A stretch of 64,000 nt of DNA, from positions 182,923 to 246,922 of the forward strand of contig JBAZXR010000001.1 of the NCBI GenBank assembly GCA_041659765.1, written 5' to 3'. Positions 3,837 to 64,000 of the stretch are shown here, piece by piece. A model generated the notes under the pieces. It had not been told where the DNA came from and ran no database searches. It saw nothing but the letters and a program-made list of their open reading frames with translations. Source of the stretch: Patescibacteria group bacterium. Lineage in GTDB: Bacteria; Patescibacteriota; Patescibacteriia; UBA9934. The translations under genes and the position numbers were made by a program. How positions within the stretch are numbered: position 1 is the first letter of the stretch; each line of letters opens with the position of its first letter.

Positions 3837-4574
3837 ATGAAATACATTGTAGCGAATTGGAAAATGAATCTCGGAATCAGGGAATCCGTAGCACTGGCAC
3901 GCGGAACACTTTTGGCGCTCCAGGGAAAGGAGATAGTGCCCGAGGTGATTTTGTGTCCGTCCGCCACGGCGCTGGCGGAGGTGCATAAGACGCTCGCGCG
4001 CACGCGGATGCATCTTGGCGCGCAGAACGTGGGTCCAGGGCGTTCTGGCGCCTTTACGGGGGAGGAGGGCGTGGCCCAGCTTGAGGATGTAGGATGTAAG
4101 TATGTCATTCTTGGCCATTCGGAGAGCAGAGCTTTGGGTGAAGGGCCGGAGACGATTGCGAAAAAAATGGCCGCAGTGTGGGAATCAGCGTCTTTGACGC
4201 CGATTCTTTGTGTGAGCGAGATGGGGGAGTTGAAATCATCGTTGAGTTTGGTTAAGCCGTCACGGAGCAAAAAATTGTTTTTAGCCTATGAGCCAACTTG
4301 GGCAATCGGCACCGGGAACCCGGCTACCCCCGCCGACGCCGTGCGCGAACTGACCGCGCTTAAAACAGAGTTGACGGCGATAGGCTTTTCAGCTGATGCA
4401 CTTGTAATGCTGTATGGCGGTTCAACTAATGCCGAGAACGCGTATTCGTACCTGCGCGAACCTGTTATTGATGGACTGCTTGTAGGCGGAGCAAGTCTGA
4501 AGGTTCAGGAGATTACCGGTATTATTAACGCTGCGCATGAGGTCATAACCGCCTCGCCTGAAATATGGTCTTAA
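3837..4574 (+). CDS. tpiA: triosephosphate isomerase
   Basis: 245 aa. IVANWKMN start, GHSESR, AYEPTWAIGTG and LYGGS signature segments. Confidence 0.9.
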   Translation: MKYIVANWKMNLGIRESVALARGTLLALQGKEIVPEVILCPSATALAEVHKTLARTRMHLGAQNVGPGRSGAFTGEEGVAQLEDVGCKYVILGHSESRALGEGPETIAKKMAAVWESASLTPILCVSEMGELKSSLSLVKPSRSKKLFLAYEPTWAIGTGNPATPADAVRELTALKTELTAIGFSADALVMLYGGSTNAENAYSYLREPVIDGLLVGGASLKVQEITGIINAAHEVITASPEIWS

Positions 4575-5335
4575 CCATTATTCTCATCTCGGTGTTCGTG
4601 CTGTCTGTGGGCGTTCTCGGCGTCCTTTTAGTGCGCAAGGCACCGAGTGTTTTAGTGATTGATCCTTCCGCCTCGAAAGATGCTAAAGCTAAGGAGTTGA
4701 AGCGTGATATTTTAAAGAAACGCCTTGAACGAGCTACGGCAGTTCCTATTAGTAGCGCGCGCGATGTGTTGGTTGCGCCTTTTGTATTTATGCAACGAGC
4801 TGTGCGGTCAGTGGCCGGCCAGCTTAAGGCGCTTGAGGATTCTTATGCCAAGCTCCAGAAAGGCGGGAAACCGGTTAATGAAGATGCTGTTCGCCAACTG
4901 TTTGAAGAATCTGAAGCTGCTTTTCGTGCCGGGAGAACAGATGACGCAGAAAAGAGGTTGATTGAGCTCATCAGCTTGAACCCAAAGTATGCTGAGGCGT
5001 ATGAGCTTTTGGGGCGTGTATATATGCAGACAAAGGACTATGCGCTCGCTCGCGAAACGTTATTGCATGTACTGAAGCTCTCGCCCAAGAACGCGAGTGT
5101 CTATGCTAGCTTAGGCGAGGTGTCGGAACTGGAGGGCAAGGTTGAGGCCGCGTACGAGGCTTATAAGAGGGCGATGGAGTTGAGCCCGAATAACCCTAAG
5201 TATTTAGATTTCTTTATTTCAGCTGCTATTACGGCGGACAATTTTGAAGAGGCTAAGGAAGCGTTGGAACGTCTGAAGGAGGTTAATCCACAAAATCAAA
5301 AGATCGCGGAATTTTCCGCGATCCTTCTCAAGTAA
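4565..5335 (+). CDS. membrane-anchored tetratricopeptide (TPR) repeat protein
   Basis: N-terminal TM helix then TPR-like repeats (AEAYELLGRVYMQTKDYALA..., ASVYASLGEV..., AYEAYKRAMELSPNN). Confidence 0.55.
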   Translation: MVLTIILISVFVLSVGVLGVLLVRKAPSVLVIDPSASKDAKAKELKRDILKKRLERATAVPISSARDVLVAPFVFMQRAVRSVAGQLKALEDSYAKLQKGGKPVNEDAVRQLFEESEAAFRAGRTDDAEKRLIELISLNPKYAEAYELLGRVYMQTKDYALARETLLHVLKLSPKNASVYASLGEVSELEGKVEAAYEAYKRAMELSPNNPKYLDFFISAAITADNFEEAKEALERLKEVNPQNQKIAEFSAILLK

Positions 5336-5556: not shown

Positions 5557-5631
<75 letters not shown>

Positions 5632-5718
5632 GTAAAAAGCAGGGAAATTGTAACAGGGACCCCACAGGTAGTCAATTGCAATGCTTAAAGGGCTGTGATA
5701 CGATTTTGCCACTTTTAG

Positions 5719-5794
5719 GCCGACATAGCTCAGCTGGTAGAGCAACGGTTTTGTAAACCGTAGGTCGTCGGTTCAAGCCCGACTGTCGGCTCCA
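5719..5794 (+). tRNA. tRNA-Thr (anticodon TGT), CCA encoded
   Basis: Acceptor GCCGACA/TGTCGGC, D-arm GCTC-AGCTGGTA-GAGC, anticodon stem ACGGT/ACCGT with loop TTTGTAA, T-arm GTCGG-TTCAAGC-CCGAC. Confidence 0.85.
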
Positions 5795-5824
5795 TAAAGT
5801 TTTGATAGGTAGTATTGCTGATTT

Positions 5825-5910
5825 GGGTAGATACTCAAGTGGTCAACGAGGGGAGACTGTAAATCTCCTGGAGCAATCCTTCGTAGGTTCGAATCCTGCT
5901 CTACCCACCA
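5825..5910 (+). tRNA. tRNA-Tyr (anticodon GTA), long variable arm, CCA encoded
   Basis: Acceptor GGGTAGA/TCTACCC, anticodon stem GGAGA/TCTCC with loop CTGTAAA, long variable arm, T-arm GTAGG-TTCGAAT-CCTGC. Confidence 0.8.
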
Positions 5911-6195: not shown

Positions 6196-6288
6196 GTGAG
6201 AAACCAAAAGCACGAAGTCTCGCTAAAATTTGAGTCGGGTTACCTCCTAAAAATTTTATCAAGACTTCGTGCTTTTGGTTTTAGGGAG
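6196..6288. repeat. long hairpin element (about 31-bp stem, 19-nt loop GAGTCGGGTTACCTCCTAA), copy 1
   Basis: Arm AAACCAAAAGCACGAAGTCTCGCTAAAATTT pairs with AAATTTTATCAAGACTTCGTGCTTTTGGTTT (2 mismatches). The loop is shared with the copy at 14461..14520. Sits between convergent genes. Confidence 0.6.
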
Positions 6289-37323: not shown

Positions 37324-37369
37324 CTCTAGATCCTTCGCCTACGCTCAGGATCGAATGCTGTTGGCCAAC

Positions 37370-46332: not shown

Positions 46333-46719
46333 ATGCCCTCGATCGAGGCCTCTTTCCGCATAGTAAGGGATTTAACCCTCGATCTTTTGTATTTCCCGAT
46401 TTGGTGGTATTCGACGGGTTTGATGGAAAGAGTTAACGGGGCGGGGGAGTTGATTACGGGGGCGAGTAGGAGTTTGCAGATTGGACTTTGGATCAGAAAT
46501 ATTTTTGTACCAATGTACGGGGCGTATGACTGGCAGAGTCGGTTGATTAGTGTGTTCATGAGATGCGTGCAGATTGTCGCTCGAGTCATCGCCCTCGTGT
46601 TCTGGGTTCTCGTCGCCTTCGCATTCTTCGCGCTGTACGTCTTTGGACCGATCATGCTCATCCTGCTTTTTGCGTATCACGCGTTCTTGTCCGGACAAGC
46701 TTCCTATTATGGCGCGTAA
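46333..46719 (+). CDS. membrane protein, hypothetical
   Basis: 128 aa from ATG 46333. Three predicted TM helices. Overlaps the ClpC-like start. Confidence 0.35.
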   Translation: MPSIEASFRIVRDLTLDLLYFPIWWYSTGLMERVNGAGELITGASRSLQIGLWIRNIFVPMYGAYDWQSRLISVFMRCVQIVARVIALVFWVLVAFAFFALYVFGPIMLILLFAYHAFLSGQASYYGA

Positions 46720-49303
46720 TCAACTACCACTTCCGGGGATGCGCGCGGGGGATGAGGTTTTTATTTGGCGAAAAGAAATTGATGCAGTGTCTATTGCGCA
46801 CGAGCGAGGATTAAGAAAAGCCCGAAAAGCATTCGCAGCTGTGGCGTTTGTGCTAGGGGCATTGTCGATTGTGATATTCGCTGCGATCGTGAGGACGTGG
46901 CAAGCCACGTCCGTACAACAATTTTTGGATCCGCATCCGGTGATTGTTTTTTTGCCGTTGGGATTTTTGCTCATGTTATTCGCGTACTTTGAGCGGAAGA
47001 TTTCGTCGCCCATCCCCTTATCATTCTCGAAGAATATTTCCGCTGATTTTGAGGAGTCCGTGAGCGAGAAATCGAGTGAGCTCTCGCTGTACGCGGCTGA
47101 TGAGGCGGTGAAGACGGTCGAAGACTCGTATCTTTTAGCGAAGAAAAATGGCGATGCTGACGTTGGTCCGGCGCATTTATTCGCCGGATCCCTTGGTTCG
47201 CGACCGGGGCAGATTTTGTTTGCGCGTCTTGGACTGACGATTGATTCAGTTCGGGATCCGTTGCGTCGAAAGTTATCGGCTGAGCCGAAGGGTGATACAG
47301 CGATTGCCGAGCGTGGCGCACATGTCCTGGCACTCGCAGGTATTACTGCTGTAAAAGGAGGCCGGGCACATCTGACGAGTCTAGACATCTTTGCTGCCGC
47401 CTACCAGTCCGACGAATTTTTCAAACAGTTATTCGACGAGCAGGGGATTCCGCAGACAGAACTCGAAAATGCTTTGCACTGGATGAGAATCTCGGAAGAA
47501 CAGCAGGAGCGGTATAAGGTGTTTCGTCAGGCTGCCGCGTTCAAGCCACAGAACAACATGGACCGCGCCATGACGGCCATTGCGACGCCGTTTCTCGACT
47601 CCGTGAGCGAGGATCTGACCCGTGCGTCGGCTCGGGGATACACGGAGCTGCTGGTAGGACGCGACGAAGAAATTCAGTCAATCTTTAGAGCTATCGAAGG
47701 CGGGGGAACGAGTGTGGTCCTGGTCGGCCCGTCCGGCGTTGGCAAGAGTGCAATCATCGAGGGTATCGCAGACCTCATGGTCGAGGAGCGCGTACCGAGA
47801 GTGCTCGAAGACAAGCGACTTTTGAAACTTTCAGTCCCGCATATTGTGAGCGCGCAGGGAGGGAACGGCGCTGAAGAACGTTTCTTGCACGCCATGAATG
47901 AAGTCGGCCATTCTGGGAACATCGTTCTTGTCATTGAGAATATCGACGAACTAGTGGGAGTCGGAAATTCTATAGATCTTTCGAGCATCCTCGCGAGCGA
48001 ACTCGAAAAGGGTTATACGTTCGTGATCGCGACAACAACTGCCCAAGGATACGCGGATAAAATCGAACGATCGGTGATTGGCAGAAGGCTCGAGCGCGTA
48101 CAGATTGCGGAGCCAGCGCGTGATCTCGCTATCCGTATTGTCGAGTCCAAAGTTGGCCTGATGGAGGCGAAGAATCATGTGGTGTTCACGTATGGCGCCG
48201 TTGCGTCGGCCGTCGACCTCTCGCTTCGATACTTGCACGATAGCGTTTTGCCGGACAATGCAATCTCTCTTTTAAAAGAAGTTGCCCTCACGGTAGGGAA
48301 GCGGAGTCAGAAAATTACATGGGTGGTGAAAGAGGACGTTGCATCAATGGTCGAACTCAAGACGAAGATTCCGGTGAGCGATGTGAAAGAAGGCGAGGGT
48401 GCAAAATTGCTCAACCTCGAAGAGAAGCTCCACGAAAGAATCATCGGCCAGGAACACGCTGTCGCCGCAGTATCTAGTGCTCTCCGTCGAGCAAGAACCG
48501 AGCTTAGAAGCACCGGCAAACCGATTGCCAACTTTTTGTTCCTCGGTCCTACCGGTGTAGGTAAGACCGAACTCGCCAAAGCAACGAGTGAAGTGTTCTT
48601 CGGCAACGAGAACGCTATGGTTCGGTTTGACATGTCGGAATATCAAGCGGCCGAGTCCGTCACTCGACTCATTGGCGGTAACGGACAGACGGGGCTTTTG
48701 ACCGAGGCGATCCGAAGAAACCCTTTCTCATTATTGCTACTCGACGAACTTGAAAAAGCTTCTCCGGATATTTTGAATTTGTTCTTGCAAGTCATGGATG
48801 ATGGCCGACTCACGGACGGCCTTGGTCAAACGGTTGATTTTACGAATGTGATTCTCATCGCAACAAGTAATGCGGGAACGCAATACATTCAAGACGAGGT
48901 AGCGAAGGGTGCGGAACTCTCGACTATTAAAGAAGCGTTGCTCGCCACAGAACTGCGATCACTTTTTAGACCAGAATTCCTGAACCGTTTTAATGACGTG
49001 ATCGTGTTTGCACCGTTGACCGAAGCTGATGTGACCGCGATCGCCTACTTGCTCGTTGAAAAAGTGAAGAAGCAAATTGAGGCCAAGGGCATGACGCTTG
49101 AGGTGACGGACGCTGCTATCCACGAGCTCGGCCGCCAGGGATTTGATCCGAAATTTGGTGCCCGACCTCTCAGACGCACCATTGAGGAGAAACTCGAGAA
49201 TAAACTTGCTGACGAACTGTTAAAGGGAAATATCGCTCGCCGAGACACGGTCGTCTTTGACGAAGGCGGGAAAATTGAGGTAAGAAAAGCCCAGAAACTT
49301 TAG
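46709..49303 (+). CDS. Clp/Hsp100 AAA+ ATPase (ClpC/ClpB-like) with unusual N-terminal membrane-spanning segment
   Basis: Start MARNQLPLPG at 46709. Two hydrophobic helices (AFAAVAFVLGALSIVIFAAIV, VIVFLPLGFLLMLFAYF), Clp_N-like repeats. D1 Walker A GPSGVGKSA; D2 GPTGVGKTELAKA, sensor-2 GARPLRR. Confidence 0.75.
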   Translation: MARNQLPLPGMRAGDEVFIWRKEIDAVSIAHERGLRKARKAFAAVAFVLGALSIVIFAAIVRTWQATSVQQFLDPHPVIVFLPLGFLLMLFAYFERKISSPIPLSFSKNISADFEESVSEKSSELSLYAADEAVKTVEDSYLLAKKNGDADVGPAHLFAGSLGSRPGQILFARLGLTIDSVRDPLRRKLSAEPKGDTAIAERGAHVLALAGITAVKGGRAHLTSLDIFAAAYQSDEFFKQLFDEQGIPQTELENALHWMRISEEQQERYKVFRQAAAFKPQNNMDRAMTAIATPFLDSVSEDLTRASARGYTELLVGRDEEIQSIFRAIEGGGTSVVLVGPSGVGKSAIIEGIADLMVEERVPRVLEDKRLLKLSVPHIVSAQGGNGAEERFLHAMNEVGHSGNIVLVIENIDELVGVGNSIDLSSILASELEKGYTFVIATTTAQGYADKIERSVIGRRLERVQIAEPARDLAIRIVESKVGLMEAKNHVVFTYGAVASAVDLSLRYLHDSVLPDNAISLLKEVALTVGKRSQKITWVVKEDVASMVELKTKIPVSDVKEGEGAKLLNLEEKLHERIIGQEHAVAAVSSALRRARTELRSTGKPIANFLFLGPTGVGKTELAKATSEVFFGNENAMVRFDMSEYQAAESVTRLIGGNGQTGLLTEAIRRNPFSLLLLDELEKASPDILNLFLQVMDDGRLTDGLGQTVDFTNVILIATSNAGTQYIQDEVAKGAELSTIKEALLATELRSLFRPEFLNRFNDVIVFAPLTEADVTAIAYLLVEKVKKQIEAKGMTLEVTDAAIHELGRQGFDPKFGARPLRRTIEEKLENKLADELLKGNIARRDTVVFDEGGKIEVRKAQKL

Positions 49304-49309
49304 CTCTTA

Positions 49310-49382
49310 TCCCATCCTGAGCGAGAGCGAAGGATCCGACTTTCCCCTCTGAGGGTCGGACTCTTCGCAAAGCTCAGAGTGG
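49310..49382. repeat. 73-nt dispersed repeat, copy 1 (inverted relative to the copy at 63325..63397)
   Basis: tcccatcctgagcgagagcgaaggatccgactttcccctctgagggtcggactcttcgcaaagctcagagtgg. Contains internal hairpin GGATCCGAC...GTCGGAC. Sits between the ClpC-like gene and the MraY-like gene. Confidence 0.7.
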
Positions 49383-49392
49383 AGACAATGCT

Positions 49393-60853: not shown

Positions 60854-61165
60854 ATGTACGCAGTAATTACCACTGGCGGTAAGCAGTACCTTGTAAAAGA
60901 GGGACTCAAACTCCAGGTAGAAAAAATTGACCTTGAAGTGGGTAAGACTATTTCTTTCCCGGCCATGCTCGTGTCTAACGAGGACGGAACGGACGTGAAG
61001 GTCGGCAACCCAGAAGTAAAGGGTGTGTCCGTCTCGGCAAAAATCGCCGAACAGGGCCGCGATACTAAGATCTCTGTGATCAAGTATAAGCGCAAGGTCC
61101 GCTATCGCCGCAACGTCGGCCATCGCCAGCCCTTCACCATCATCGAAATCGAAAAGATTTCCTAA
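60854..61165 (+). CDS. rplU: 50S ribosomal protein L21
   Basis: MYAVITTGGKQYLVKEGLKLQVEKI...VKVGNPEV...IKYKRKVRYRRNVGHRQPFTIIEIEKI. Confidence 0.9.
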   Translation: MYAVITTGGKQYLVKEGLKLQVEKIDLEVGKTISFPAMLVSNEDGTDVKVGNPEVKGVSVSAKIAEQGRDTKISVIKYKRKVRYRRNVGHRQPFTIIEIEKIS

Positions 61166-61171
61166 ACAAGA

Positions 61172-61200
61172 ATGAGGCCCCCGGGCCTCGTTTTTGTTTG
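61172..61200 (+). terminator. intrinsic terminator after rplU (no rpmA follows)
   Basis: GAGGCCCCCGGGCCTCGTTTTTGTTTG. A second GC hairpin (CCCCTCCGC...GCGGGGAGGGG) serves the convergent minus gene. Confidence 0.6.
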
Positions 61201-61247
61201 AAAAAGAAACCCCCTCCGCGCGCCACGTTGGCGGGGAGGGGCAGAGA

Positions 61248-61916
61248 CTAGGGCGCCTTCGGCGGTTCCCAGTCAGGAGGGATGATCGCGGCGGCGTGGA
61301 GATTGCCGGTAGCGATTTGTTTTTGGAGAGTTTCCATGGCCGGATTGTACCGATTCCGTCCGTCGCAGTATGACGGCGAATGTGGTCGGTTACGGCTTTG
61401 TCGGCACCTGATGAGGAACTCGCCCATGGTGGTTCCTTTGAACCAATGGTAGCGTTTTCCGTCCTTCCAGATTGGCACCTCACCGTACGTTTCGGGCGCT
61501 CCGTTGAGTGCTTTGATAAACGTTGGCTCCTCCCAGTAGGGAGGCCGCCAGCCTGCAGTGAGCGATCGAGTACTTTGTGGCAGTCTCAGCTTCTCTTCCA
61601 GCTCTCCAAAGACGTCGGGGCGCATTGGATAACCCTTGCCGGACTTACCCTCGATGCGGAGCATGTATGCTTCGCCTACGAAGACGACACCACGGTTGTG
61701 CAGGTATTTGAATACCTTTTGCGATAGGCCCACTTCAGAAATCCGCGTGGACATCTTGCTGAATAGCTCTGTATGTTCCTCGGTTTTACCGCTCAGCGGT
61801 CTCTGGATGAAGTTTTGGAGGGCAGTTTTTAGCACCTCGTTTTCCTCATTGGAACGGGCGCCTGCATGTGCCAGGCGGCGAGCTTCGTCGAGTAGGCCAA
61901 CGAGCGGATAGGACAT
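61248..61916 (-). CDS. hypothetical protein (222 aa), no recognisable domain
   Basis: Long ORF, own terminator downstream. Trp-rich C-terminal half (GWRPPYWEEPT, PIWKDGKRYHWFKG). Confidence 0.35.
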   Translation of the reverse strand: MSYPLVGLLDEARRLAHAGARSNEENEVLKTALQNFIQRPLSGKTEEHTELFSKMSTRISEVGLSQKVFKYLHNRGVVFVGEAYMLRIEGKSGKGYPMRPDVFGELEEKLRLPQSTRSLTAGWRPPYWEEPTFIKALNGAPETYGEVPIWKDGKRYHWFKGTTMGEFLIRCRQSRNRPHSPSYCDGRNRYNPAMETLQKQIATGNLHAAAIIPPDWEPPKAP

Positions 61917-61971
61917 CTGATCCTCCAGTCAGTGTTGTGCGGTCGATGATAGTCGACAAGAAAGCGTAGCA

Positions 61972-62000
61972 GTTTGCAAGGATTTTTGCAAGTTTTATAG
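61972..62000 (+). promoter_or_regulatory. candidate sigma-70 promoter (TTTGCA-17-TATAGT) for the Cys-rich protein gene
   Basis: gTTTGCAaggatttttgcaagtttTATAGT, with direct repeat TTTGCAAG x2. AAGGAGG SD 7 nt before the ATG at 62073. Confidence 0.4.
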
Positions 62001-62072
62001 TTAATATTGGCTACATTGTTTGACAATTATTCAAAAGGTTGGTCTACTCCAGCTCGCATTAAGGAGGTAGGG

Positions 62073-62615
62073 ATGCCGTTTAATCCGTTTGAGGATGTTC
62101 GGCAGCCCTGCAAAACAGAGGGTTGCCCGCGCAAAGCGTTTAGTGGTGATGGGCTGTGCACGGTTTGTGTCTCCAGAGCGACTGTGGCGAAGCATTTCGG
62201 CATAGAGCCTGCGTCTGTTTCTGTCGCTCCCGACACGCCTGTTGCTGAACGATGCGCTATTCCTGGTTGTGGCAGTCGCCGGGTGTATCGCGAGTGGTGT
62301 ATGCCGCATTTGGTGGTATTCGCTAATCTGTTTCGGCTGACGAAGCTGAAGAAGGGTCATGGGAGAGAAATCCTGTGCATTGAGCCGGGCTGTGGGAAAA
62401 CCGCTGACTCCCGTCACCGATGCGGATCCCATCTTCATCGTTGGCGGAAGGCGTTCAAGGCGGTGGGGCAGCCGTTTCCAAAAGTTAAGAAACCACCGCC
62501 GACACCGTGCCCGGTTCCTGGGTGTGGTGATACGGTCAGGGTTAGAGGATTTTGCTTGAAACACTTCGGTGATGTGAATTATGCCGTTCGGGCTAACATC
62601 GTTAAAGCCGCGTGA
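62073..62615 (+). CDS. protein with four tandem Cys-rich zinc-ribbon-like repeats (C-x3-GC...G-x-C-x2-C/H)
   Basis: CKTEGCPRKAFSGDGLCTVCVSR; CAIPGCGSRRVYREWCMPH; CIEPGCGKTADSRHRCGSHLHRW; CPVPGCGDTVRVRGFCLKHFG. Confidence 0.5.
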   Translation: MPFNPFEDVRQPCKTEGCPRKAFSGDGLCTVCVSRATVAKHFGIEPASVSVAPDTPVAERCAIPGCGSRRVYREWCMPHLVVFANLFRLTKLKKGHGREILCIEPGCGKTADSRHRCGSHLHRWRKAFKAVGQPFPKVKKPPPTPCPVPGCGDTVRVRGFCLKHFGDVNYAVRANIVKAA

Positions 62616-62658
62616 GTCGGGTGAGGCTTCGTGCCGGCAGACTAGCTGCCGGTTTTTT

Positions 62659-63258
62659 TTATGTTTCACTTCTTCCATTCAGTGCACTTGCCAGCGTTAC
62701 TTCGTCTGCATACTCAATATCAGCGCCCATGGGGAGGCCGCGGGCAAGCCTCGTAATCTTTTTGTCGACGCCTTTTAAGAGGCGGCTTAAATATAAAATA
62801 GTAGTTTCGCCATGAACGTCCGGAGAGAAGGCTAAAATAATTTCTTTGATTCCGAGGTCTGCCTTGAGCCGGTCGTTCAGCTGGCGGACGTTCAGTGTGT
62901 CTGGCGTATAGCCGTCGATTGGATTTAACACGCCACCGAGCACGAAGTACCGGCCTTTGTACATGCCGGTCGCCTCAATGGTCGAAATATCTCGCGCTTC
63001 AGCCACGACGCAGAGGACATCGGTTGCACGCCGAGCATCCGAGCAGATATCGCAGATGCTACTTTCGGCGTAGGTAAAACACGTGGTACAGGTAGCCACG
63101 CGTTTGAGGTTTTCGATCGCGCGTGCCACGAGATCGAGCTCGTCCTTTCTCAGATGCAGCAGCGCAAAAACATACCGAAGCGCAGTCTTCGGCCCAACTC
63201 CCGGCAATCGACCCATAGCCGCCATTGCGTTGTGAATTGGAGCGGGGAATTTTCTCAT
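62659..63258 (-). CDS. recR: recombination protein RecR
   Basis: GRLPGVGPKTALRY HhH, C4 zinc finger CTTCFTYAESSICDICSD, Toprim domain. Confidence 0.9.
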   Translation of the reverse strand: MRKFPAPIHNAMAAMGRLPGVGPKTALRYVFALLHLRKDELDLVARAIENLKRVATCTTCFTYAESSICDICSDARRATDVLCVVAEARDISTIEATGMYKGRYFVLGGVLNPIDGYTPDTLNVRQLNDRLKADLGIKEIILAFSPDVHGETTILYLSRLLKGVDKKITRLARGLPMGADIEYADEVTLASALNGRSET

Positions 63259-63452
63259 GCAAATGCATCCATCAGGTGTCAGGTTTCAGGTTTTGGAGCC
63301 TGAACAAAGAATCCAATTTCGTCCCCACTCTGAGCCATGCGAAGAGTCCGACCCTCAGAGGGGAAAGTCGGATCCTTCGCTCTCGCTCAGGATGGGATCC
63401 AATTCAGTAATTCTCCTTCCTTAACCTGACACCTGAAACCTGATGGTTCAGG
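63259..63452. mobile_element. MITE-like palindromic insertion between ybaB and recR (outer inverted CAGGTKT x3 arms enclosing the 73-nt repeat, copy 2 at 63325..63397)
   Basis: Left arm atCAGGTGTCAGGTTTCAGGtttt (63271-63294). Right arm CCTGACACCTGAAACCTGat (63420-63439). Core is the reverse complement of the 49310..49382 element, about 70 of 73 identical. The ybaB-recR gap is unusually long at 194 nt. Confidence 0.55.
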
Positions 63453-63758
63453 TTAGCCTCCGATTCCCTTCATCATATCTCCCAGTGCTCCCATTCCGCC
63501 CATGGCCTGCATTTTTTTCATGAGCTCGCCCTGGAGTTTCTTGTTTACGTCCGTAATGGCTTCTTTGACCCCTTGTTCGGTTCGAGATTTATCGAGTCCT
63601 TCCTCGATTGCAACTCCGAGCACTTCATGGCTGCCGTTCATGGTGATCATGACTTTACCGCCAGCACCAGAGCCAACTATTACAACTTCGTCTAACATGG
63701 CTTTCATCTTCTTGCCTTCGTCACGCATTTCTTTGAATTGTTTCAATTTGTTGAACAT
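63453..63758 (-). CDS. ybaB: nucleoid-associated protein YbaB/EbfC
   Basis: 101 aa. MFNKLKQFKEMRDE...VIVGSGAGGKVMITMNGSHEVLGVAIEEGL..., Gly/Met-rich tail. Confidence 0.85.
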   Translation of the reverse strand: MFNKLKQFKEMRDEGKKMKAMLDEVVIVGSGAGGKVMITMNGSHEVLGVAIEEGLDKSRTEQGVKEAITDVNKKLQGELMKKMQAMGGMGALGDMMKGIGG

Positions 63759-63767
63759 AGGTTTTAA

Positions 63768-64000
63768 TTATACTGGCTTGAAGCCTTTAGGGGGAATACC
63801 GGGAGGGAGGTTGCGGTTTTGGAGATTAGGAGCGGGAGGTTGTTGGTGGTCGGAGGTTGGCGGTTGGGGGAACGGATTCGATGCCGTGGTTGGGGTCGAC
63901 CCATGCGTCGACCCGCCAGCCGACCCTCCTGAATACCGCGTATCCATATTTTTGAATGACGCTCGGGCCGCATCCCAGAAGAGTTTCACCATGCCCGTTG
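63768..64000 (-). CDS. dnaX: partial CDS, probably C-terminal end of DNA polymerase III gamma/tau subunit
   Basis: Position immediately upstream of ybaB-recR (the conserved dnaX-ybaB-recR arrangement). Pro-rich low-complexity C-terminus. Continues beyond the window. Confidence 0.35.
   Translation of the reverse strand, partial: TGMVKLFWDAARASFKNMDTRYSGGSAGGSTHGSTPTTASNPFPQPPTSDHQQPPAPNLQNRNLPPGIPPKGFKPV

Follow-up and report, generated by a model that had tools for sequence, protein, structure and literature searches.

A probable mosaic of palindromic repeats in the ybaB-recR spacer of a Patescibacteria genome

The genes ybaB and recR, both identified here by their Pfam domains, are separated by a gap of 194 nt (63259-63452) near the right end of the 64-kb stretch of a Patescibacteria genome analyzed in this study (hereafter, the window), whereas in several relatives the same gap measures 0-13 nt or the genes overlap. 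This raises the question of what occupies the spacer and how it came to be there. The original prediction, a reading of the sequence alone, described it as an insertion resembling a miniature inverted-repeat transposable element (MITE) that splits a normally tight gene pair; the length of the spacer, the identity of both genes and the close spacing of the pair in relatives were all borne out. We consider it likely that the spacer consists of non-autonomous palindromic repeats combined into a mosaic, with a core doublet nested in a heptamer palindrome, and that this DNA inserted into a 3-nt ybaB-recR junction of a Ca. Uhrbacteria-like genome. The coordinates of the features are collected in Table 1.

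Insertion into the ybaB-recR junction

Judging by its RecR and GT4 homologues, the organism belongs to the Ca. Uhrbacteria-like Patescibacteria, and comparison with relatives delimits the insert. In L013, the ybaB-recR junction reads GGAGGTTAA-TGC-ATGAGAAAG (TAA-tgc-ATG), compared to GGAGGCTAA-(191 nt)-TGC-ATGAGAAAA in the window. The spacer measures 1 nt in L015-17, 2 nt in L023 and 13 nt in L022, and the two genes overlap in the P0021 contig. The junction between the ClpC-like and GT4 genes, which holds the second copy of the core in the window, is empty in L019 (TAG-ttgaat-ATG) and measures 2 nt in L022, 9 nt in the P0021 contig, 41 nt in L023 and 36 nt, without a hairpin element, in L024. 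Since these junctions are empty in relatives, the window carries a 191-nt insert (63262-63452) at ybaB-recR and a 78-nt insert at ClpC-GT4. Judged by this sequence comparison, the long ybaB-recR spacer is a real insertion into a normally tight junction, as had been proposed.

L014/L024 (RecR 90% identical) was considered as a further filled site and rejected. The L024 sequence (GCA_964348985.1) contains runs of exactly 100 N at 5077-5176 and 12572-12671, one lying precisely over ybaB-recR and the other inside GT4. Because the second run falls within a gene, these gaps are uninformative.

The outer inverted arms of the spacer, which the original prediction had described as tandem heptamers, are 29 nt long and 86% complementary, and three tandem TCAGGTK/MACCTGA units lie in each of them. 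On the plus strand, the ybaB-side array (63423-63443) reads AACCTGA CACCTGA AACCTGA, corresponding to TCAGGTK units on the minus strand, and the recR-side array (63272-63292) reads TCAGGTG TCAGGTT TCAGGTT. The palindrome that includes both inverted arrays spans 178 nt. The entire spacer is predicted to fold into one nested hairpin (-97.9 kcal/mol, z -8.2), and the inner hairpin GGATCCGAC...GTCGGAC is present in the core as claimed. Together with further copies of the core in other genomes, the arms and the core confirm the palindromic, repeat-derived nature of the spacer, which has terminal inverted repeats around a core that is itself palindromic. One additional heptamer match, at 9999-10012, lies inside a coding region and was taken as chance.

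The element is small and non-coding, and the open reading frames (ORFs) drawn across it are frame-dependent translations of the repeat. They had been expected to carry a common peptide at both copies; ORF 63225-63410 (+) does carry SHAKSPTLRGESRILRSRSGWD, but ORF 49170-49370 (-) is in a different frame, reads LRRVRPSEGKVGSFALAQDG... and does not contain it. A representative protein search with the 61-aa spacer ORF gave three matches, all to the heptamer-encoded part and none to the core, and a protein search with three open translations of the core gave one candidate and no match. Residues ~4-32 of the spacer ORF (63225-63407, +) match repeats in the giant proteins P0241 and P0243 (2229 and 2632 aa; eight stretches each), which are probably low-complexity matches.

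The element is real and not an assembly artefact, because the independent Logan contig L001 (SRR18595301) is 100% identical to the window over 60953-63353. This contig terminates in the hairpin loop. Such hairpins interrupt assemblies, yield spurious ORFs and can pass for regulatory RNAs.

The 73-nt core at 63325-63397 matches 49310-49382 on the opposite strand, as originally described, with 2 mismatches instead of about 3; no such match was obtained in 100 shuffles. The similarity extends to 78 nt (63321-63398 versus 49309-49386) with 3 mismatches. Copy 1 indeed lacks the heptamer arms. The core fold has a predicted energy of -42 to -46 kcal/mol (z about -5), and two differences between the window copies sit in the triloop of the right unit (CAT versus TTT).

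From its sequence, each core is best read as two inverted stem-loops resembling repetitive extragenic palindromes (REPs), that is, as a REPIN-like doublet. The doublet structure, the third, solo unit at 37328-37354 and the shared orientation of both full copies relative to local transcription were not part of the original prediction. In the unit of 26-27 nt, three bases precede a 5-bp stem whose two strands enclose GAGC, a loop of three or four bases and GCGA. Left and right units differ at two stem positions that are compensated within each unit (ATCCT/AGGAT versus ACTCT/AGAGT), so that in the long arm-to-arm hairpin these positions would form a C.A mismatch and a wobble pair and pairing would be lost there. 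The doublet reading is supported by about ten different compensated stem variants: ATCCT/AGGAT, ACTCT/AGAGT, ACCCT/AGGGT, ATCCC/GGGAT, ATTCT/AGAAT, ATGCT/AGCAT, ATTCC/GGAAT, ACCCC/GGGGT, ATTGC/GCAAT and GTCCT/AGGAC. When the motif GAGC-N2-5-GCGA was counted over 558 kb of collected sequence, perfectly complementary flanking pentamers accompanied 81 of 249 matches versus ~0.25 expected by chance, with a bimodal distribution.

Table 1. Coordinates of the genes and repeat features (window positions unless another locus is named)
Feature	Location	Strand	Remarks
ybaB	63453..63758	-	Upstream gene; Pfam YbaB_DNA_bd
recR	62659..63258	-	Downstream gene; Pfam RecR domains
Whole insertion, 191 nt	63262..63452	-	Relative to the relative's empty site TAA/tgcATG
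Outer inverted arm beside ybaB stop codon	63418..63446	-	Inverted-repeat and heptamer analysis
Outer inverted arm beside recR start codon	63269..63297	-	Inverted-repeat and heptamer analysis
Core copy 2, REPIN-like doublet at apex of outer palindrome	63321..63398	-	Covariance-model match, 100.6 bits
Left REP-like unit, copy 2	63370..63396	-	CCC ATCCT GAGC GAGA GCGA AGGAT CC
Right REP-like unit, copy 2	63324..63349	+	CCC ACTCT GAGC CAT GCGA AGAGT CC; stem compensated versus left unit
Apical hairpin between the two units	63350..63369	.	GACCCTCAGAGGGGAAAGTC on plus strand; flipped or variable among family members
Core copy 1, armless doublet	49309..49386	+	Between ClpC-like stop (49301-49303) and GT4 ATG (49393)
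REP-like units of core copy 1	49311-49337; 49358-49383	+; -	
Solo REP-like unit	37328..37354	-	TCG ATCCT GAGCGTAGGCGA AGGAT CT; 46-nt spacer between SEC-C-motif gene and ASCH gene
B-type elements	L020 9896-9995, 15626-15726; L021 9894-9995, 15103-15195; L012 917-1012		

Related copies in other genomes

An exact 24-mer from the window core, used as a search seed, recovered 10 copies on six contigs of the metagenome-assembled genome JBAZWW01 (Patescibacteria) and one copy in Ca. Uhrbacteria CAWGHH01. These copies have only the element in common with the window (86-94% identity), and their flanks differ. Further copies of the kind expected of a MITE exist (at least 10 by exact seed in JBAZWW01), and with the window copies and the solo unit they make up a dispersed set. 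The outcome named as refuting the original prediction, a lack of other copies together with an equally long spacer in relatives, was thus not observed. A covariance model built from seven simple copies detected ~20 loci in 80 kb of JBAZWW01, including five within one 8-kb stretch; it found only the two core copies in the window and gave no match in relatives L013-L017 and L019-L021.

Family members vary in structure and setting. A further hairpin module, CCTCGGGCGTAGCCCTACGGGCGAG, is nested in some copies; others are truncated or have a flipped apical hairpin. Orientation relative to flanking genes is mixed, with about 7 sense and 5-6 antisense among 13 copies. Two copies in JBAZWW01 form in-frame parts of long ORFs and contain no stop codon, one in RadA (L005 ~895-980) and one in a SufS-like aminotransferase (L003 ~1149-1244). 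The RadA insert of 27 aa follows directly after the Walker A helix and is absent from S. pneumoniae RadA (PDB 5lkm). Two states of the apical hairpin, GACTTTCACCGGTGAGGGTC (L004, L011, L007, L008) and GACCCTCACCGGTGAAAGTC (L009, L002), are reverse complements of each other, which gives the appearance of a flip of the segment enclosed by the inner inverted repeats.

The outer heptamer module also occurs away from ybaB-recR. At L002 (JBAZWW01), a locus unrelated to this gene pair and upstream of a long ORF (4042-5079, -), the core is preceded by six TCAGGTK heptamers and the linker TAAGGAAGGrGAATyACTGAATT, which is common to L002 and the ybaB-side arm of the window. A metagenome scan for the arm-plus-linker junction returned only L018, a locus identical to L002. 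At the L005/L007 junction, an array of four heptamer units directly abuts the core 13 nt from the start of a Clp gene. In 3/3 cases, it is the CCCATCC end of the core that borders the array, and among these three the second, inverted array is found only in the window. The core may have entered an older outer palindrome, or the composite may move as a unit.

Other arrays with a period of 7 were seen just upstream of genes: GTTGGNG-like units upstream of ybaB in the window (63842-63867), AACATTA upstream of ybaB in L013 (1570-1595) and GGGTTGC in L009 (5596-5621). The ClpC-GT4 spacer of L024 contains at ~12735-12770 an irregular TAGAGGGT-like repeat, seen by eye, whose period TRF (Tandem Repeats Finder) did not confirm.

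The unit itself is distributed more widely. The canonical 23-mer CATCCTGAGCGAAGCGAAGGATC, searched in IMG/VR, has 28 exact matches in unrelated viral contigs that come from many samples. A number of these matches form perfect doublets (L032, L042, L049, L041, L033/L052), and others are solo units. Seen against these units and doublets in viral contigs, the window core is the version of one lineage within a far larger set. The occurrence of a nearly unchanged unit in unrelated metagenomic contigs raises the question of which conserved partner recognizes it. Scans of viral contigs with seeds for the A-type (window) core and for the B-type element described below found none.

A second subfamily, B-type, was found at the same two junctions in L020 and L021. 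Both belong to the clade of the window (RecR 94% identical; ClpC/GT4 83-87% identical), and both carry ~100-nt inserts of this different element at ClpC-GT4 as well as at ybaB-recR. The B-type plan is GTCATTGCGAG-(hairpin)-CGAAGCAACC...GATTGCTTCG-(hairpin)-CTCGCAAAGAC, with a predicted cloverleaf fold. The two L020 copies are 97.6% alike and inverted as in the window, and the copy at ClpC-GT4 of L021 keeps the backbone but differs in its side hairpins from the orthologous site of L020. No further B-type copies occur in the 21-kb loci of L020 and L021; one is present in L012, where an A-type copy follows ~950 nt downstream. In each of the clade members L013, L019 and L024, a single junction could be read, and its spacer is short and lacks a hairpin element.

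Proposed spread, probable effect on recR and alternative readings

The copies would have spread as DNA, through hairpins formed in single-stranded DNA, and mobilization would have been provided in trans by an enzyme encoded elsewhere. Our best guess for this enzyme is a Y1 HUH transposase of the RAYT (REP-associated tyrosine transposase) or IS200-IS605 type. The favored reading of the family is that of a selfish repeat acting at the DNA level: its orientation is mixed, copies lie in frame within genes, and modules are nested in one another.

An effect on recR may be expected as a consequence. In relatives with the empty site, the final codons of ybaB include a GGAGG located 7 nt ahead of the recR ATG. 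With the insert in place, recR would be moved 191 nt away from this sequence, and no clear Shine-Dalgarno replacement was found ahead of recR in the window. If the element is co-transcribed with ybaB and recR, as seems likely, its hairpin, which begins 6 nt after the ybaB stop codon, should uncouple and probably lower recR translation. The hairpin might also serve as a 3' stabilizer or an RNase processing site, which would be a side effect and not a designed function. Terminator and promoter scans at both copies found nothing inside the elements, and no U-tract follows the hairpin.

Several observations weigh against a mosaic of mobile repeats. Filling of the same two junctions by a different subfamily in L020 and L021 is not predicted by plain random insertion; independent random insertion at both is unlikely since, by a rough estimate, two of ~60 spacers must coincide. 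Either the junctions were ancestrally occupied, with later replacement or loss, or they are preferred sites of landing or retention, and the presence of two subfamilies at identical junctions may point to rules by which hairpin repeats are targeted or replaced. The ~54 window ORFs scanned with Pfam (64 kb of the 897-kb genome) yielded neither a transposase nor a Y1_Tnp domain. The window contains only two full copies and one solo unit, so activity of the element in this genome appears low or past. No consistent direct repeat indicating a target-site duplication was found around 13 copies or in the comparison of filled and empty sites. The candidate AATTGGAT flanks core copy 2 only, with no counterpart at other copies, and was rejected, as was the doubled TGCAT beside recR, which does not recur elsewhere. 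Finally, isolated units adopt the expected stem-loop by nearest-neighbor folding at only -2.5 to -5.3 kcal/mol, no better than shuffles, so support for the unit structure is comparative and not thermodynamic; in the long hairpin of A-type copies, 1 pair of 26 is compensated, the copies being too alike to judge.

A broader possibility, which we regard as tentative and rather unlikely, is that the window element locally represents a so far undescribed superfamily of modular hairpin repeats that extends across phyla. Its basis would be the shared unit plan (N3, 5-bp stem, GAGC, loop or nested hairpin, GCGA, complementary stem), along with the occurrence of singlets, doublets and cloverleaf-like forms and the swapping of side hairpins between orthologous copies. 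Mutual nesting, repeated occupancy of the same junctions in relatives and in-frame copies in essential genes would also fit. Such a superfamily would imply a conserved targeting or recognition mechanism distinct from the GTAG-REP/RAYT system, which might home to hairpins or to junctions close to stop codons.

It is improbable, in our estimate, that the hairpins are selected cis-acting RNA elements (attenuators, RNase III/E sites or 3'-end stabilizers) that set the ClpC:GT4 and ybaB:recR expression ratios, with the repeat families serving merely as raw material. Such a role would be consistent with the orientation relative to local transcription, which is the same for the solo unit, the two full copies of the window and the two in L020. 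It would also fit the fact that three genomes have both junctions filled, by two different subfamilies, and the start of the hairpins 6-7 nt past stop codons. Liang, Rudd and Deutscher are said to have found in 2015 that E. coli REPs located within ~15 nt of a stop codon reduce translation of the upstream gene. Effects of REP elements on translation and on transcript processing or stability have likewise been reported. ERIC and Correia elements change mRNA stability and processing (PMC10969869). However, close relatives manage without an element at either junction, and in JBAZWW01 orientation is mixed and copies lie inside ORFs. No U-tract terminator, promoter or Rfam match was found; Rfam searches at gathering and permissive thresholds, covering the window, the spacer and L011/L020 with their A- and B-type elements, returned only tRNAs and noise, with nothing below E = 0.5 at the spacer. 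Moreover, the two subfamilies share little sequence, and no common protein or RNA partner is evident.

Far less probable is the suggestion of the original prediction that a 14-kb segment (49.4-63.3 kb) can invert by crossover between the inverted cores. The genes claimed for this segment were recovered; GT4, DUF192 and a CAP protein lie in it beside two giant proteins (one with SpaA_2), a sortase, rplU and recR. An inversion would exchange ClpC and ybaB as the upstream genes read through into GT4 and recR and would turn the genes for surface proteins around. In its favor, the two copies lie in inverted orientation with 97% identity over 78 nt, L020 and L021 share this inverted-pair geometry, and, judging from the map, all four junction genes would stay co-directional; inversion has also been reported for Correia elements (PMC10969869). 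Nevertheless, the suggested inversion was not supported, as the order and orientation ClpC+, GT4+ ... recR-, ybaB-, DnaB- are identical in nine assemblies (the window, L019, L020, L021, L022, L023, L024, L015 and the P0021 contig), each covering one or both junctions and two of them carrying inverted element pairs. A fixed inversion of the segment is excluded; if inversion occurs at all, it would be at low frequency. In addition, no recombinase or invertase was found near either copy or among the ~54 window ORFs, the segment includes the housekeeping genes rplU and recR, and L001, as the sole independent assembly, ends within the hairpin and so offers no alternative junction.

The least credible alternative, that the long spacer was inherited from an ancestor as a structured part of the ybaB-recR operon, could appeal to the ~100-nt, strongly structured ybaB-recR spacers of L020 and L021, but these are a different, unalignable element also copied in L012, five other relatives from within and outside the clade have spacers of 0-13 nt, and the window core recurs at unrelated loci of other genomes, so that empty sites and dispersed copies already contradict it.

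Comparison with known repeats and other features of the window

The mosaic of palindromic repeats at ybaB-recR is best filed as a new family of the known REP/REPIN-like palindromic mobile repeats, present here as a nested mosaic in an operon of the candidate phyla radiation (CPR). The earlier term MITE-like is acceptable as a description; a mosaic resembling REPINs or bacterial interspersed mosaic elements (BIMEs) fits better, and neither a target-site duplication nor, within the 64-kb window, a parent insertion sequence was found. BIMEs of E. coli are mosaics of REPs with other short motifs, and the combination of a core with accessory heptamer motifs in the window is similar.

In Proteobacteria, REP singlets and REPIN doublets are short imperfect palindromes, solo or in inverted pairs, that are mobilized by RAYT Y1 transposases (PMC3116915, PMC3337134). 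The present family likewise consists of imperfect-palindrome units of ~26 nt, solo or in inverted doublets making a long hairpin. Its copies are mostly extragenic, located between co-directional genes and near stop codons, and form near-identical populations within genomes. It differs from REPs in that a GTAG-type 5' tetranucleotide is lacking, the units beginning with CCCAT or GTCAT, and in its patescibacterial host, with no RAYT among the ~54 window ORFs scanned. The family is also not strictly extragenic, given the in-frame RadA and SufS-like copies of JBAZWW01, and its unit recurs in nearly identical form across numerous unrelated metagenomic contigs, while a given REP is usually confined to its lineage.

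Other families share parts of this pattern. Rickettsia palindromic elements occur in intergenic regions or in frame within conserved genes, leaving the frame intact (PMC10969869). The likeness lies in palindromes of ~100 nt, a small genome and the in-frame copies of JBAZWW01 (not of the window), and it is one of behavior only: most copies here are intergenic, the architecture is modular, with units and nested hairpins, the host phylum differs, and the sequences are not expected to be related. Correia/NEMIS and ERIC/IRU elements are co-transcribed into long hairpins that alter mRNA processing and stability (PMC10969869). They resemble the window element as 100-200-nt elements with terminal inverted repeats inside an operon, which would form a long hairpin if co-transcribed. 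The differences are that the present element shows no target-site duplication, no internal promoter or IHF-like site by simple scans and no known parent insertion sequence.

Among cyanobacterial repeats, STRR heptamer arrays and small dispersed repeats, reportedly described by Mazel in 1990 and Elhai in 2008, are similar in being intergenic tandem heptanucleotide arrays and tiny palindromic repeats that nest in one another. Sequences and hosts differ, and the arrays here were only observed attached to one end of a core, in all three cases.

No sequence- or topic-matched literature on palindromic elements or MITEs of Patescibacteria or CPR bacteria was found. Selfish repeats are not expected to be common in very small, tightly packed Patescibacteria (CPR) genomes. 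Here, a REP/REPIN-like family has come between housekeeping genes that are coupled in translation (ybaB-recR and ClpC-GT4). As an insertion it is ordinary; the aspects of note are the unit shared across lineages, the in-frame copies and the recurrent occupancy of junctions. The family offers a handle on mobile-DNA dynamics in CPR bacteria.

The area between the TGT and ClpC-like genes varies between genomes, as relatives have other small genes there (in L021, a gene with a GIY-YIG domain). In the window it holds a '23S rRNA-intervening sequence protein' gene (PF05635; 45903-46277, +). The ClpC-like ORF (46574-49303, +) is 909 aa by the first-start rule versus 864 aa in three close relatives, and its true start probably lies about 45 codons downstream of the first. 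Another hairpin, at 6201-6281, has 31-nt arms that are 94% complementary and a 19-nt loop. Its sequence is unrelated to the element studied here, and its neighbors are a tRNA cluster (5560-5907) on one side and, on the other, the end of a gene for 949 aa.

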